This document shows positions 326 to 64,000 of a stretch of 64,000 nucleotides of DNA, piece after piece. The translations under genes were made by a program, and so were the position numbers. The stretch's first letter is position 1; the number at the start of each line of letters is the position of its first letter. The stretch is from Camelus dromedarius (Eukaryota). The stretch is from contig NC_087436.1 of the NCBI RefSeq assembly GCF_036321535.1, positions 46,378,001 through 46,442,000 of the forward strand, given 5' to 3'. A model generated the notes under the pieces. That model had not been told where the DNA came from and did not search any database. It saw nothing but the letters and a program-made list of their open reading frames with translations.

Positions 326-810
326 CAGGCACACCTCAGAGACACGGCAGGTTTGGTTCCAGACCACTGCAGTAAATCGAATATCACATTAAAAAGAGTC
401 ACACAAACTTGCTGGTTTTCCTGTGCATATAAAAGTTACATTTATGCTATACTGTAGTCTATTAAGTGTGCAATAGCATTATGTCTAAAGAAAACAACGT
501 ACAGACCTTAATTAAAAAATACTTTATTGCCAAAAAATGCTAACCATCATCTGAGCCTTCAAAAAGCGAGTTGCAGAAGTAACATCAAAATCACTGACCA
601 GAGATCACCATAGCAAACATAATGAAAAAGTTTGAAATATTGCAAGAATCACCAAAATGTGAGACAGAGACATGAAGTAGGCAAATGCTGTTGGAAAAAT
701 GGTGCTGACAGACTTGCTTGACACAAGGTTGCCACAAATTTTCAATTTGTAAAAAACATAATATCTGTGAAGGATAATAAAACGAAGCACAATAAAACAA
801 GTTGTGCACA
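326..810 (-). mobile_element. Tigger1-derived non-autonomous DNA transposon (internal deletion derivative, Tigger1a-like)
   Basis: Starts TA|CAGGCACACCTCAGAGA...GGTTCCAGACCACTGC and ends ...CAATAAAACAAGTTGTGCACA|TA. Both Tigger1 termini are recognisable, with TA target dinucleotides, and the transposase region is absent. Confidence 0.85.
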
Positions 811-3895: not shown

Positions 3896-4355
3896 TTTTC
3901 TTTGTTTTAAAGCATTTTATTGAAGTACAATTGACATGTAAAAAGCTGTACATATTTAATACATACAACTAGATAAGTTTGGGATAGGTATACATTTGTG
4001 AAACCATCACCATCATCAAGGCATCGATACACCCCTCATCTCTGAAAGTTTCCTCCCACCTCCTTTATTATTATTATTATTGTGAAATAAGAACACTCAA
4101 TATAAGATGTACCCTCTTAGCAAGCTTTAAGTATTGAGTATAGTATTGTTAGCTAAAGGTTCTATGCTGTATAGTAGATCTCTAGAATATATTTACCTTG
4201 CATAATTAAAACTTTATACCCTAGACCATCACCTCTCCATTTTCGCTCAGCCCCTGTCAACCACTCAAGGAATTTTTTCCCTATGTTTTCTTCTAGGAGT
4301 TTTATGGTTTCAGCTTTTATAGTTAAGTCTTTAATTCATTTTTCATTGATTTCTT
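3896..4355 (-). mobile_element. L1 (L1MA/MB-type) 3' end plus a short ORF2 piece
   Basis: T-rich tail, TTTATTGAAGTACAATTGACA...GAAACCATCACCA...ATGCTGTATAGTAGATCTCTAGAA, then CCTATGTTTTCTTCTAGGAGTTTTATGGTTTCAG (antisense ORF2). Confidence 0.8.
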
Positions 4356-4559
4356 CCCTTTGTTTCTGTCCACCTTATTTCTTCTCTCCAAAACAGCTGA
4401 CACAGCCAAAAAAGTATGCTGAAATAGAAAGCAAGAGGTAAAAACAAAACAAAATACCCAGCCAATTATGAATCCTGAAACTTTTCTTAAATATTTCCTG
4501 TGTGTTTAGTTGCAGATGTGTGTAAGAGGTGAACACATTTTAAAAATACAAACAGAATC

Positions 4560-6241
4560 CTAGTGAAAAGAAATCTCTTCTCAGAGTACCCAGAAAAGTT
4601 ATGTTTAAGCTCACTTTGAAATACTTGTAGGAGTGGACAGTGAACAGATCCAAGTCATAAGAGAATTGACAGGGTTTGGTAAATTATATGATAAACCAGA
4701 TAAGGGTATTCCAGATACCTGCAATAACTACTCACCCTCAAGATCATGAGAAGACCTATGTATAGGCATATGTTTATCTCGGCACGTTTCTGACCTTAGA
4801 GGCTAGCCTTATCACAGGTAGGTACATCATTAGTGAGAAATAGAGTGCTCCAACAGTGTTGGTTGTGGGCCAAAAGAACTGGCTTGGCTTAAGAGCCCTT
4901 GCTATGATGTGTTTTGATGACCTTGATCTGCTGCAGTTGAGGTTGTCAACGCTGGTCTTTAAAGCATTGCCATTATGGCTAATTTTTACTAATTTCTGTC
5001 TCAGGCTGACAATTTGCACCATCTTTCAAGCGAAAACTCTTTCTGAAGCATGAACAGTATCAGTTGTCATGAATTTTCTCATCATGAAGAGCAATCTGGT
5101 TTTACAGCCTCCCTCTGTTTTCTATAATTTATTCTTTCGTTCATGAATTCTCTGCTTGTAAGTTTTCACTTCCTCTGTTGCTGATAGCTTCTGCTTTTTC
5201 TCTTCCCATTCATATTCTTGAACCAGCTTCTTTTGCAGAGTCATGCCTTTCTGCTAAGAGAATTCCTTTAGAATTTCTGCTACAAGGATCTGGCCAAGTT
5301 TAGTGAATAAGAGTTAGGTTCCAGCTTCTATATTTGTTCTTACAGCTCATGCCTGGCTGACACATCACTCAATTTGGAACAGAAACGGTCACTGTCTTTT
5401 TCAACTGTTAATTATTGTTAACATCAGTTTTGTCTGAGAAACATCTATCGCTTGACTTCTCTTATTTTTCACTCTGGTGATCTGCCAGCTGTCCATGGTC
5501 AAATTCATCCCATGTATATCATTTTAAAATTTTTTCTGCCTTTAGATTCAAAAGCAGTATCAAATTGTCTCATCTGCAGGTAGACATCTTCAAAACTTCT
5601 GTTCATTCTCTTTGCAAGCAAAACCTTTAATCTCTGTGAAACTGTGAGTTTTGTATAATGTACTAGTTCACAAGCTCTCGTATAATGCTCTCTCCAGTCT
5701 TCTGTTTCTAATAGCAGTTAGAACATGCTCTTCTCAAATCAGGTGTATTCTTTGTAAATCCAATAGAGTTTAGGTTCTCATCGTCTCACAACTTAGTTTA
5801 GCTTCATTTTTTCTCTCAAATACTATGAAATTCTTCAGAAAATTTTGTCTTGCCAAATATCTCTTCAGTTTCCTTAGATTTTATTTCTTCTCAGTTCTCA
5901 ATATAACAAGCAAATTTCCCACACCATTTGATCCATTTCTTTAAGTCTTCTAATTGAATATTTAAAGCAGACATGTTCAGAAATATTTTAATTTTGTTTC
6001 TTGATTTCTTCAGAAGATATCATTGCTTCTCTGATTATTTTTCATGATCTGCTATCTTTTAAATATTTTTTATGTTTATTTCAAAATATTTTTAAACATT
6101 TATGCAATCCATTGTTTTTACTTGATGATTTCTACTATTTAAAAGGAATATTCTTCAGAGGGACAGTGACAAATAAACTAATTCCAATAAACAAATATAA
6201 TTATAGGCTTCTAACACTCGTCATAAAAATCAGGACTGGGC
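4560..6241 (-). pseudogene. MIA3: Processed pseudogene (retrocopy) of MIA3/TANGO1, covering the transmembrane, coiled-coil and start of the proline-rich domains
   Basis: Manual minus-strand translation across frameshifts gives colinear TANGO1 motifs: PSPDFY..*KPII (cf. PGPDFYGLPWKPV), NLLVILRTEKK, NEAKLS, DVSQTK, EQI*KLE, EILKEFS*QKGMTLQKKLVQEYE, EEVKTYKQRI, KNQIALHDEKIHDN*, SLRQKL, MAML, GLLSQASSFGPQP (cf. GPLSQNGSFGPSP), RNVPR. No introns; many stops and frameshifts. The left (3') boundary is approximate. Confidence 0.88.
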
Positions 6242-7500
6242 CCTTCTGGCATCTTTGTTGTGGATGAGACAGCAGTCAGTTTAGGTACCCTCCATTGTAA
6301 TTTCCCTTTGGTAGTTCCTAACATTTTCTCATTGACCTTGACCATTTCTATGTTTCTCCTCCTGTGTGTTTAAGTGTGATTTATTTTTACTTGCCACTTG
6401 GAGTATAAGTTCAGTCTTAGGGCTCCTATGTTCAATTCTAGAAAATTCTCATCTATTACCTCTTAAACAAAGGCTTCTCTATCATTTCTTTCAGATTCTC
6501 TTTTTAATATAAGTAAAATTTTTCTTCTTAACATAGATGAGAAGATAGTTCAATAGTTAGATACATAGATAGATGTTGAATCTGTCTCTCTGGGCTACAT
6601 CCTACAGCTTCCACATCGATTCCTTCTTCAGCCACATCCAGGCTAGCATTTAATTGGTGTATCCTTTTTTTTCTATCTCAATGACCATTTTCAAGATTTC
6701 TAAAGGATTCTCTTTCAAATTTACCTGTTTTTTTATTTGTTTGTTTGCATTAAAATCACACCCTTTAACAGATGTTACTTCTTCATTTATTTCTTAAAGC
6801 ATAATTAACATACTAACATTTGTCTGATGATTTCTTTAATTAATTTACCTGGAAAGAATTCATGATCTTATTATTGAGTGCTGCCTTTCTTAGCATTAGT
6901 TTTCTCCATACGTTTTAGAATTTTGGTTTCTATATTCATTATGAGTCGGAGGTTTTGTTTGTGTGTGTGTGTGTGCGTGTGTGTGTAGTTTTCTATCTGT
7001 GTGTGTCTACCTTTCTTCCCTAATCATTTTATGTTTGTCTTTAGCTGACCTCTCAGCCTTCAAGACCAGACTTGTCTTAAAATGGCATTTCAATACCCCT
7101 GTCCCAGATTTACATGGGGAATATCGCAGAATTAGGCATCAAACCATTGGATGCTTGCTTCTTTTTCCAATTCAGAGATTATATCTATACTCCTCAGCCT
7201 TTAAGCCAGAGATCTAACTTCTCTTCAGCATTTGCAGGCCCCCAGCCTTCGGAAGTGAGTTTGGTTCTGATTAGTGAACTTTCGAGTGTTTATTCTTCAG
7301 GGATAAAACCCATGGCCATCATTCCTACTTCTAGAACCAGAGGCCAGCAGGCTTATGGTATATCTCTGCTCTCCACTTGCCTGTCTGGTCCATTTCTGGT
7401 CAGTGGACATGCCCATTTCTTTTCTGAATACAAATACTTACAAAGAATTTCCTCTTTTTATAACTGTGTGTTTAGAGTAGAAGGAGCAAATCAGAGCATA
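6242..7500 (-). mobile_element. Ancient L1 ORF1 / HAL1-like fragment
   Basis: CTTCTGGCATCTTTGTTGTGGATGAGACAGCAGTCAG (antisense of the ORF1 'LTAD-SS-T-DARR' motif) and TTCAATTCTAGAAAATTCTCATCTATTA, typical of degenerate antisense L1M/HAL1 ORF1. The right boundary is uncertain. Confidence 0.6.
6960..6986. repeat. (TG)n microsatellite
   Basis: gtgtgtgtgtgtgtgcgtgtgtgtgt. Confidence 0.9.
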
Positions 7501-9127: not shown

Positions 9128-9172
9128 GCCCTCCGGGGAAACGAGGTAAGAGGGGCCGAAGAGGAGAGTCTG
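9128..9172 (+). CDS. COL25A1: COL25A1 coding exon, 45 nt (phase 1-1), start of COL1: (G)PPGKRGKRGRRGES(G)
   Basis: Acceptor ttctttgtatttcag|GC and donor TCTG|gtaagt. Gly-X-Y translation matches the recalled collagen XXV sequence GPPGKRGKRGRRGESG. Confidence 0.96.
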
Positions 9173-57591: not shown

Positions 57592-57618
57592 GGCCCTCCT
57601 GGTCCAAAAGGTGATAAG
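57592..57618 (+). CDS. COL25A1: COL25A1 27-nt exon: GPPGPKGDK
   Basis: ttttttctctttatttcag|GGC CCT CCT GGT CCA AAA GGT GAT AAG|gtaaga. Confidence 0.96.
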
Positions 57619-60191: not shown

Positions 60192-60327
60192 ATTTGGTTT
60201 GTTTTATTGGAGGGACATAATTAGGTTTATTTATTTATTTATTTATTTTTAATGGAAGTACTGGGGATTGAACCTAGGACCTCGTGCATGCTAAGCACAC
60301 ACTCTACCACTGAGCTGTACCCTCCCC
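60192..60327 (-). mobile_element. Camelid tRNA-derived SINE (Vic-1 type) with 13-bp TSD
   Basis: Reverse complement GGGGAGGGTACAGCTCAGTGGTAGAG...GGTCCTAGGTTCAATCCCCAGTAC (Pol III A/B boxes) plus (AAAT)n and AAACCTAATTA; TSD tatccatatatat at 60179-60191 and 60328-60340. Confidence 0.9.
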
Positions 60328-61017: not shown

Positions 61018-62006
61018 AATAAAATATTATTTCATTATTATTTCTCTCAAGGAGCTGATAATCTCACGGGTGCCTGAATAAGAAAACTATGTGGTTGTAT
61101 GTTATATGCCTTAAATAGCTCTAAGAGATGCTAGATAAGTGAACATACTTCCATTTTAAATAATCACTGGAGACTGTAGAAAAGGTAACACTTGAGCTAG
61201 GATTTGATAAATGGGTAATCTTTAAAAGATAAAATGAAGGACAATAATATTGCATTTGCCAAGGAAATGGGTTAAATATAGAAAAATTGTATCATATATG
61301 GCTGAAATTTTTTATTGAAGTTATGGAACATTTTGAAGTTCTTGTGTGGCGGACAATAAGGAACAACTGAAGATTGTTTAGTATATAATTTGCTGTATAC
61401 TACCACCAGACTACTTGGTGTTATTACCAAATGTTCTTTATGAAAATCTATACTGTAATAGTGTCCAATATGGAAAGAAGTTCAAAGAGACTGAAAGCAG
61501 GGATACCAAATAGGGCAGAAAACTATGTCAGTCATCTGGACAAGGTCATGAAAGTCTGGGCTATAAGGATAATATCCAGTCCTCAGTGGAGAGGTGAGCA
61601 GAGGGGATGAGCTGGCTCAACCTGGAGCATCAGGTATCATGGAGGTGCAAGCCATACTGAGCAGAAAGTTCAGTGGCAGAATGAGAAGCTCAGCAGTGGA
61701 GAGGGACTAAATTGGTGAGCCAAGCAGAAGTTCCAAAAGGGTCACCAAAACATTAGAAAAAAGCTCTATGTTTTAAATGGTGTTGAGAAGGGAAGTTGGA
61801 TCATCTCACCAATAGGGTTCACCACAAATACCAAGCAAAAACCTGGGCAAAGAGGGAGAAACAGGGACTAATAGAGGAGAAATCGATAAAAGTGAAATCT
61901 TGAAGTGGAAGGTGAGAGATGAATTTGATCTCTCTTGGATTTACATCCAGAATCTGTGACCATGGGTGGAGTCATGACCACATTAAATTTAAAAAAAAAA
62001 AAAGAA

Positions 62007-64000
62007 AAGGAAAGACAAGGATGCCCACTATCACCACTCCTATTCAACATAGTCTTGAAAGTCCTAGCCACAGCAATCAGGCAAGAGAGAGAAATAAAAG
62101 GGATTCAAATTGGAAAAGAAGAGGTAAAAGTGTCGCTATATGCCAACGACATGTTACTATATGTAGAAAACCCTAAAAGGTCCACACAAAAACTACTAGA
62201 GCTGATCGAAGAATTCAGCAAAGTAGCAGATTACAAGATTAACGTTCAAAACTCAGTTGCATTTCTTTTCACTAACGATGAATCAACAGAAAAAGAAAGT
62301 AAAGAAACAATCCCCTTTACAATAGCACCCAAAGTAATGAAATACCTAGGAATAAATCTAATCAAGGAGGTGAAAGAATTATACACAGAAAACTATAAGC
62401 CATTGATGAAGGAAATTAAAGAAGACTTTAAAAACTAGAAAGATATCCCATGCTCTTGGATTGGAAGAATCAATATTGTTAAAATGGTCACACTACCCAA
62501 GGCAATCTACAGATTTAATGCAATCCCTATCAAATTACCCAGGACATATTTCACAGAACTAGAACAAATCATAATAAAATTCATATGGAACCATCAAGGA
62601 TCTAGAATCACCAAAGCGTTACTGAAGAGAAAGAAAGAGGCTGGAGGAATAACTCTTCCAGACTTCAGACAATACTATAGAGCTACAGTCATCAAGACAG
62701 CATGGTATTGGTACAAAAACAGACATATAGACCAATGGAACAGGATAGAGAGCCCAGAAATGAAACCACAAACTTTTGATCAACTAATCAATGGAATAAA
62801 GACAGTCTCTTCAGCAAATGGTGTTGGGAAAACTGGACAGCAGCATGTAAAGCGATGAAGCTAGAACACTCCCTTATACCATACACAAAAATAAACTTAA
62901 AATAGATCAAAGACTTGAACATAAGACAAGATACAATAAACCTACTAGAAGAAAATATAGGCAAAACATTATCTGACATACATCTCAAAAATGTTCTCCT
63001 AGAACAGTCTACTCAAGCAATAGAAATAAGAGCAAGAATAAACAAATGGGACCTAATGAAACTTACAAGCTTCTGCACAGCAAAGGAAACCATAAGTAAA
63101 ACAAAAAGACAACCTATGGAATGGGAGAAAATTTTTGCAAATGAAACAGACAAAGGCTTGATCTCCAGAATATATAAGCAGCTCATATGACTTAATAAGA
63201 AACAACCAAACAACCCAATCCAAAAATGGGCAAAAGACCTAAACAAGCAATTCTCCAAGGAAGACATACAAATAATTAATGGGCACATGAAAAAATGCTC
63301 CATATCACTAATTATCAGAGAAATGCAAATCAAAACTACAATGAGGTATCACCTCACACCAGTCAGAATGGCCATCATTCAAAAATCCACAAATGACAAA
63401 TGCTGGAGAGGCTGTGGAGAAAGGGGAACCCTCCTACACTGCTGGTGGGAATGAAGTTTGGTACAGCCACTGTGGAAAACAGTATGGAGATTCCTCAAAA
63501 GACTAGGAATAGACTTACCGTATGACCCAGGAATCCCGCTCCTGGGCATTTATATAGAAGGAACCCTACTTCAGGATGACACCTGCAGCCCAATGTTCAT
63601 AGCAGCACTATTTACAATAGCCAAGACATGGAGAAGCCTAAATGTACATCAATGGATGACTTGATAAAGAAGAGGTGGTATATTTATACAATGGAATACT
63701 ACTCAGCCATAAAAACCAACAACATAATGCCATTTGCAGCAACATGGATGCTCCTGGAGAATGTCATTCTAAGTGAAGTAAGCCAGAAAGAGAAAGAAAA
63801 ATACCATATGAGATCGCTCATATGTGGAATCTAAAATACAAAAACAAAAACAAACAAACAAACAAAAACAAAGCGTAAATAAAGGACAGAAATAGACTCA
63901 CAGACAGAGAATACAGACTTGTGGTTACCAGGAGGGTGGAGGGTGGGAAGGGATAGACTGGGATTTCAAAATTGTAGAATAGACTACACTGTATAGCACA
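62007..64000 (+). mobile_element. Young lineage-specific L1, 5'-truncated: ORF2 RT C-terminal part and start of the 3' UTR (runs off the window)
   Basis: ORF pieces [73 protein letters not shown]...SLICGI*. Disabled by a TAG at 62436-62438, further stops and frameshifts. Confidence 0.97.

Follow-up and report, generated by a model that had tools for sequence, protein, structure and literature searches.

An intron of a collagen gene in the dromedary holds a decayed, intronless, partial copy of MIA3/TANGO1, and comparison with living TANGO1 sequences supports an age greater than that of the crown placentals. MIA3/TANGO1 is an ER-export gene. The account that we consider probable is a dead partial retrocopy that L1 would have made from spliced MIA3/TANGO1 mRNA early on the placental lineage and that has drifted neutrally since. 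The features are collected in Table 1, where the window is the whole 64-kb stretch of DNA that was analyzed.

Table 1 Features of the window in and around the TANGO1 copy
Feature	Position	Strand	Basis
Decayed intronless MIA3/TANGO1 copy	4777..6240	-	Frameshift-aware alignment, 430 vs null maximum 53
5′ block with mostly placental-type residues, spanning the membrane exon and the beginning of coiled coil 1	6075..6240	-	Diagnostic sites
Possible weak continuation of the copy	4620..4776	-	Uncertain, noise-level score of 52
Unassigned stretch of 266 bases that separates the L1 ORF2 fragment from the copy	4354..4619	-	No poly(A) or target-site duplication recognizable
L1 ORF2 fragment, copy's orientation	4252..4353	-	Score 76 vs null maximum 41 (fetched ORF2 proteins)
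3′ end of an L1, probably inserted separately, with poly(A) signal	3900..4270	-	Read from sequence
Probable very old L1 ORF1 remnant, copy's orientation	6242..6930	-	Colinear to L1 ORF1 residues 48–290
Collagen (Gly-X-Y) exon, 45 nt, 2.9 kb from the TANGO1 copy	9128..9172	+	ag/gt boundaries, translation
Collagen exon of host gene, 27 nt	57592..57618	+	Proper splice sites

Identity and extent of the copy

Frameshift-aware local alignment matched the copy in colinear order to residues 48 to 584 of the 811-residue Tasmanian devil TANGO1S with a score of 430; the maximum was 53 in 20 local shuffles and 52 in 63 other stretches of the window. Plain tblastn also recovers the copy (E = 1e-17), and 209 of 491 aligned residues are identical in dunnart TANGO1. 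No further TANGO1 match was found anywhere in the window, and Pfam gave no match in the copy's three frames. Relative to devil TANGO1S, there are 16 frameshifts, 15 stops, and 11 deletions of 1 to 12 codons. The only insertions are of 3 and 6 nt, and 537 residues are covered by 1464 nt. A largest insertion of 6 nt means that the copy has no intron, and it spans the exon junctions implied by isoform gaps at residues 180–240 and 277–324. The intronless, colinear, antisense TANGO1 copy proposed in an earlier note on this DNA is thus borne out.

The alignment covers the membrane exon, coiled coils 1 and 2, and only the start of the proline-rich part, and the last 180 to 230 TANGO1 residues are absent from it. 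The earlier description of the copy as transmembrane, coiled-coil, and proline-rich parts is therefore right for the first two and too generous for the third. Its length of ~1.7 kb was likewise overestimated, as the firm match is 1.46 kb, 4620–4776 is at noise level, and 4560–4620 gave no TANGO1 alignment with four guide proteins. The possible weak continuation would reach about devil residue 630 and appears with one of the four guide proteins under lenient penalties. An ORF at 4774–5025 had been attributed to the copy; it follows the TANGO1 frame at its two ends but not between them. The noise-level continuation ends (4600–4625, minus strand) near the junction of an alternative 24-residue exon (devil residues 634/635), and a donor-like motif adjoins this end.

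Roughly the first ten codons of the membrane exon are missing from the copy, along with the start codon and the 5′ exons. The membrane exon is exon 7 of MIA3 and is common to the long and short isoforms, as described in the available text of PMC8524724, and a start inside this common exon leaves the source isoform indistinguishable. At the other end of the copy, near 4600–4625, the RNA that was copied may have extended into an intron. Colinearity with the spliced mRNA, the absence of introns, a disabled frame, and a location among collagen exons away from the parent locus all fit a processed pseudogene. No poly(A) tail or target-site duplication is recognizable at the copy, and neither is expected to outlast 0.3–0.4 substitutions per site.

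Genomic setting

The collagen exons are on the plus strand, so the copy lies antisense to the host gene, which we take to be COL25A1. L1 pieces with the copy's orientation occur on both sides. The ORF2 fragment matches the young L1 of the window (76% over 72 nt, E = 7e-10). The ORF1-like stretch on the 5′ side stops exactly at the start of the TANGO1 match, and three of four ORF1 proteins exceed all 40 shuffles against it with lenient penalties only; the likeness is not significant with default penalties, at the DNA level, in Pfam, or in PDB. Pfam searches of the two flanks returned one irrelevant coiled-coil match only (E = 0.067), and a PDB sequence search of the 5′ flank found no L1 ORF1 match. 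The L1 3′ end at 3900–4270 is presumed to be such from its family likeness.

In the account that we favor, spliced MIA3/TANGO1 mRNA would have been reverse-transcribed by L1 early on the lineage to placentals, and the inserted copy would probably have been broken from the start (dead on arrival) and then left to neutral drift. L1 is the presumed copying enzyme because it is the established mechanism for mammalian processed pseudogenes and because L1 pieces flank the copy. One chimeric event and insertion into an older L1 explain these pieces equally well; as to a chimera, the ORF2 piece is firm, the ORF1 piece is only suggestive, and no shared target-site duplication is seen.

Relation to living TANGO1 proteins

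One reading frame of the copy, with stops given as X, was searched without a profile against 1.84 billion representative proteins and gave 26 matches at E ≤ 0.001, consisting of five short ORFs (61–90% identity) and 21 longer proteins. Tasmanian devil TANGO1 was the best long match. Names were available for 14 of the 21, of which 12 are TANGO1/MIA3 and two are unnamed or hypothetical products from a bird and a frog, and all 21 are 47–97% identical to devil or dromedary TANGO1. The results support an MIA3-type copy among the matches found, with cTAGE5/MIA2 compared only indirectly, and agree with the source named in the earlier note.

Fifty-three proteins were scored against the copy. The five marsupials scored 410–430, the ten sauropsids 313–389, and the 26 placentals 187–312 (dromedary 296); scores were 267–341 for five amphibians, 225 for the coelacanth, and 155–341 for six unnamed proteins. 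Another 77 proteins, each entered with its first 660 residues or with the first 660 of its last 850, left the rank order unchanged, and the best placental among them scored 314. A best match to a marsupial protein means that a search with the host's own gene underrates the copy. Seven segments had been singled out as resembling non-mammalian TANGO1; six do lie nearer to the marsupial or turtle sequence than to those of dromedary and snub-nosed monkey, but the seventh, HDN, also occurs in dromedary.

Many divergent TANGO1-like proteins occur on different contigs in Callospermophilus, Ictidomys, Sciurus, Urocitellus, and Marmota (P0110–P0164), and one cluster of these squirrel proteins has 104 members. 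These paralogues score lowest against the copy (163–204) and are therefore not its relatives. P0009 and P0018 are strongly diverged placental-type TANGO1 proteins (53–63% to dromedary) that score 179 and 155.

Placement on the placental stem

Guide bias was controlled by restricting the analysis to 351 columns in which the codon reading was identical with marsupial, sauropsid, and placental guides, with 45 references. Eight of the 53 proteins were left out before sites were counted (six unnamed, one human isoform lacking 59 residues, and one snake), and 18 more were left out before trees were built (fast rodents, shrew, hedgehog, sengi, frogs, and near-duplicates). Polarity was set by the marsupial and sauropsid sequences, in a set that contains neither opossum nor monotreme.

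The copy has the ancestral residue at 22 of 48 sites that changed on the placental stem, the placental residue at 10, and another residue at 16. Six marsupial-derived sites divide into two marsupial, two ancestral, and two other residues, and seven therian sites into three therian, one sauropsid, and three other. In its residues the copy thus stands between marsupial and placental TANGO1. The ancestral, non-mammalian-like sequence postulated earlier is recognizable in the 22 old residues, but the closest living proteins are marsupial and some residues are placental; the best interpretation of a mosaic with some placental residues is an intermediate from the placental stem, not a non-mammalian sequence. 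There is no need to invoke horizontal transfer from a marsupial, as the marsupial-derived sites split 2:2 and the burst of change on the placental stem explains the ranks.

A neutral codon mixture was used to estimate the share (f) of placental-stem changes present in the copy. The estimate was f = 0.17 (0.05–0.34), with values of 0.32 for the placental-guided reading, 0.13 for the marsupial-guided reading, and 0.16 both under HKY and with a misalignment term. The strictest filter (29 sites) gave f = 0.10 (0–0.30), an interval that includes f = 0. A value of f = 1 is rejected (2ΔlnL = 112; range 77–147), and f = 0 is rejected less strongly (2ΔlnL = 8.4, simulated p = 0.004). Decay simulated from a purely therian sequence yielded a mean of 2.8 placental matches and reached at least 10 in none of 1000 simulations.

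Tree placement was assessed with AU tests on a fixed tree of 27 references and with a free maximum likelihood tree. Camelid, artiodactyl, and boreoeutherian placements were all rejected (p < 0.005) in all three read-throughs, which disposes of a branch inside camelid or artiodactyl MIA3 and sustains the great age that had been proposed. The placental stem was best in two read-throughs and the marsupial-guided read-through preferred the marsupial stem; the therian node was never rejected (p-AU 0.11–0.38 across read-throughs). The frameshift-aware alignment and tree suggested in the earlier note nest the copy inside amniote TANGO1, where it groups with all 13 placentals as their sister (bootstrap 82); it leaves the placental stem 0.068 above the therian node, with 0.311 of the stem remaining.

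There is next to no chance that the copy only looks old through an artefact and really derives recently from camelid or artiodactyl MIA3, or from cTAGE5/MIA2. Nothing was found in favor of it, and long-branch effects, the sole route to such an artefact, would have to overcome AU p values below 0.005 for all crown placements, the placental-guided reading included, as well as the rejection of f = 1 and the TANGO1 type of all 21 long matches. The AU test and the rejection of f = 1 already refute a young MIA3 copy.

In the free tree, the placental stem of the cytosolic half of MIA3 measures 0.38 substitutions per site compared to 0.05 for the marsupial stem, and the distance from the placental root to the tips is ~0.07–0.11. 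We infer that the copy branches at ~15–20% of the amino-acid changes up the placental stem, and most of the MIA3 burst on that stem (0.31 of 0.38 substitutions per site) would have followed its departure. The marsupial-like look of the copy would then result from fast change of MIA3 after copying and not from a non-placental source.

A mosaic 5′ block

Placental residues are concentrated at one end of the copy. The 5′ block has six placental residues and one ancestral residue at seven diagnostic sites, and the rest of the copy has four placental, 21 ancestral, and 16 other residues at 41 sites. A change-point permutation test on the placental residues gave p = 0.003 under two filters and p = 0.056 under the strictest (29 sites). 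All of the placental-stem evidence falls within this one 165-base block, and elsewhere f = 0.02 (0–0.18). The block still has 1 to 5 ancestral residues, depending on filter and guide, and one of its six placental sites is less secure because a frameshift adjoins it.

Decay has gone equally far in the block and in the remainder (8 of 17 compared to 100 of 204 invariant residues kept, p = 1.0, a small sample), and equal decay indicates that the mosaic was already present in the source RNA. The same counts stand against a chimera in which the 5′ end of an old copy was overwritten later by a younger MIA3 cDNA; such a chimera would account for the change point in residue types and is highly improbable. 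We infer instead that stem MIA3 changed in order, the membrane-proximal part first and the coiled coils later. The alternative to ordered change is that MIA3 and a duplicate underwent gene conversion.

Decay and age

The copy keeps 108 of 221 invariant residues and has changed the other 113, compared to 0–9 changes in living genes. The distance between copy and parent at invariant sites is 0.40 (0.34–0.47) under K80 and 0.38 under HKY, and falls to 0.29 (about 0.20–0.39) when 10% misaligned codons are allowed. Camelids lie ~0.2 from the placental root, the placental stem is ~0.23 long, and the camelid-to-therian distance is ~0.43. The upper decay estimates (0.40–0.47) reach this last value, as they would if the copy came from the therian ancestor or slightly earlier and the placental-type residues of its 5′ block reflected misread polarity or chance. 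This quite unlikely origin also draws on a therian node that the AU test does not reject and on an f of about 0 outside the 5′ block, but it leaves ten placental matches where 2.8 are expected by chance, a number unmatched in the simulations. It further needs five or six reversals in Australian marsupials, because marsupials and sauropsids agree at the 5′-block sites.

The horse lies 0.15 substitutions per site from the boreoeutherian root according to the accessible part of PMC3526296, and the decay distance of the copy (0.29–0.40) is well above this figure. At 2.6e-3 changes per site in a million years, a rate that the available part of PMC8081666 gives for monotremes and describes as similar to that of other mammals, the copy would be ~110–155 million years old. 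This range falls between the calibrations of 85–94 million years for human–mouse and of 150–167 million years for human–opossum found in the same part of that paper.

Related sequences were recovered by a profile search: among 51 candidates, 12 short ORFs match the copy, and these come from other assemblies. A shared frameshift is present in all ten related ORFs that reach it. The same 8-codon deletion is seen directly in nine of the 12, two more agree in another frame, and one is further changed. Lesions common to the related ORFs mean that the copy was dead before those lineages split, and the copy would be present at the orthologous site in them. The related ORFs are 0.03–0.21 from the window copy and up to 0.28 among themselves, distances that are biased low because the ORFs were found by likeness. 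In a block of 42 sites, the window copy has lost the ancestral residue at 13, compared to nine for the majority of the relatives; at the window copy's six placental-derived sites in this block, the majority of the relatives has the ancestral residue at four and the placental residue at none. These counts indicate that most of the decay is common to the copy and its relatives. A metagenome scan for related loci gave 492 pattern matches, none of which was confirmed. A 56-residue ORF (P0191) clustered with an unrelated 603-residue viral-labelled protein (P0200), which looks like an artefact.

Function and a possible second gene

The copy is probably not a working gene. Twelve stops are seen in the 351 columns compared to 11.6 expected under neutrality at a distance of 0.40, or 9.8 at 0.30. 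The 130 TANGO1-type proteins that were scored contain no intact relative, and neither these nor the protein-search matches include the intact ORF that the earlier note thought worth looking for. A word-indexed protein search with the best block among proteins of 308–982 residues gave nine candidates, none with E ≤ 10, and is weak as a negative because it also missed true TANGO1. The suggestion of a once-functional retrogene is not supported, given the missing start and 5′ exons, the neutral stop count, the shared lesions, and the lack of an intact relative in these searches. The lower distance estimate of 0.29 leaves room for a working phase, and a brief one, or a divergent paralogue as source, may be accommodated. 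A comparison of codon positions was set aside as a selection test, as both classes are non-synonymous in the parent. Sampled words of the copy are all present in six DNA-type sequencing runs; no RNA run is among those listed as containing them, which is no evidence on expression.

The source could instead have been another working TANGO1 gene of the placental stem, formed by duplication or retrocopying. Such a gene would have retained the ancestral coiled coils during the rapid change of MIA3, exchanged its membrane exon with MIA3 through gene conversion, and afterwards either died or turned into a fast-evolving family. We regard this source as unlikely but worth weighing. A sharp mosaic is what partial conversion between duplicates is expected to leave, the decay estimate of 0.29 allows time between branch point and death, and duplication could explain the placental-stem burst; but the top long match among the 1.84 billion representatives is marsupial, the divergent squirrel paralogues are at the bottom of the scores, and no intact relative appears among the 130 TANGO1-type proteins or the word-sharing proteins of 308–982 residues. 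The 5′ block keeps ancestral residues, as an intermediate would, and the stop count sits at its neutral value. In its fullest form, also unlikely, the fossil would be the trace of a second working duplicate that had the ancestral coiled coils, and with them the ancestral ER-export job, and was dead before the placental orders split. On this view duplication released the sixfold MIA3 burst as a rebuild of the collagen-export machine, and this intron would be its sole record.

The pairing of a TANGO1 copy with a collagen gene had been called probably coincidental, and nothing beyond position links the two; a dead copy that lies in a collagen intron by chance is most likely. A present role of the dead copy in connection with MIA3 or the host collagen gene, whether as antisense RNA or as a regulatory element, is very improbable. 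Its position on the opposite strand of a collagen intron and its retention in several lineages are all that speak for such a role, but the divergence to related copies is in the range of neutral DNA, long pairing with MIA3 mRNA is hardly feasible at 0.29–0.40 from the parent, and large introns gather insertions.

Comparison with known systems

By its sequence features, the copy is a processed pseudogene of a rare kind, older than the placental radiation, and the mechanism is ordinary. It resembles L1-made processed pseudogenes, as characterized in the available sections of PMC5470649, in being intronless, 5′-truncated, colinear with the spliced message, and interrupted by many stops and frameshifts. 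The same sections put such pseudogenes at thousands per placental genome. Unlike most recognized ones, the copy is much older, has no poly(A) or target-site duplication, and finds its best match in a marsupial protein. It shares with ancient pseudogenes that predate the human–mouse split (accessible text of PMC1456316) that it was disabled before the sampled lineages split and that its lesions are common to species. That survey, by Svensson et al. (2006), reports 30 human–mouse cases, many read as possibly functional, and MIA3 is absent from its main text (PMC1456316). Unlike many of those cases, as far as the accessible text describes them, nothing at the TANGO1 copy indicates conservation.

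The domain order of the copy is that of the MIA3/TANGO1 short-isoform region in the available text of PMC8524724. Unlike MIA3/TANGO1 as presented there, the copy lacks a start, the lumenal part, and the C-terminal proline-rich Sec23-binding region and can encode no protein. L1/mRNA chimeric insertions (bioRxiv 10.1101/2025.02.02.635956, available portion) are similar in that the mRNA copy is bordered at either end by L1 or L1-like pieces in its own orientation. In the chimeras known from that portion, the mRNA lies 5′ of a 3′ part of L1 and a single target-site duplication encloses both (bioRxiv 10.1101/2025.02.02.635956); the TANGO1 copy differs from them in having ORF1-like sequence 5′ of the copy as well and no visible duplication. 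The present copy follows MIA3 and is thereby set apart from the cTAGE retrogenes, which have a different parent gene and are much younger or still open. The cTAGE genes are likewise retrocopies, derived from MIA2/cTAGE5, an ER-exit-site receptor that belongs to one family with MIA3. No literature on an MIA3 retrocopy in COL25A1 or on a placental-stem MIA3 burst was found at the level of titles and abstracts, and prior annotation of the copy as a pseudogene is quite possible.

The order of changes on the placental stem is normally unreadable because the stem is a long branch without living side lineages. A copy frozen early on this stem would split the branch for one gene. The suggested order is that the membrane-proximal residues of TANGO1 became placental first and that about four fifths of the coiled-coil burst came later. 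The copy is thus of value as a molecular fossil, and no new function is indicated. Very old retrocopies of this kind would be better found with marsupial proteins than with those of the host.

Other observations

A contig from a viral collection (L001:1709-3509) carries 1.8 kb of mammalian L1 ORF2 among phage-like and glycosidase-like ORFs; its L1 has no ORF1, and the contig is likely a chimeric assembly. In the window, a younger L1 3′ part with an RVT_1 match occupies 61900–64000 (plus strand) and is presumably of camelid type. An internally deleted, presumably Tigger-like, DNA transposon lies at 330–800 (minus strand). A tRNA-derived SINE at 60253–60324 (minus strand), which we take to be camelid from its appearance, is called tRNA-Ala by ARAGORN and Rfam.
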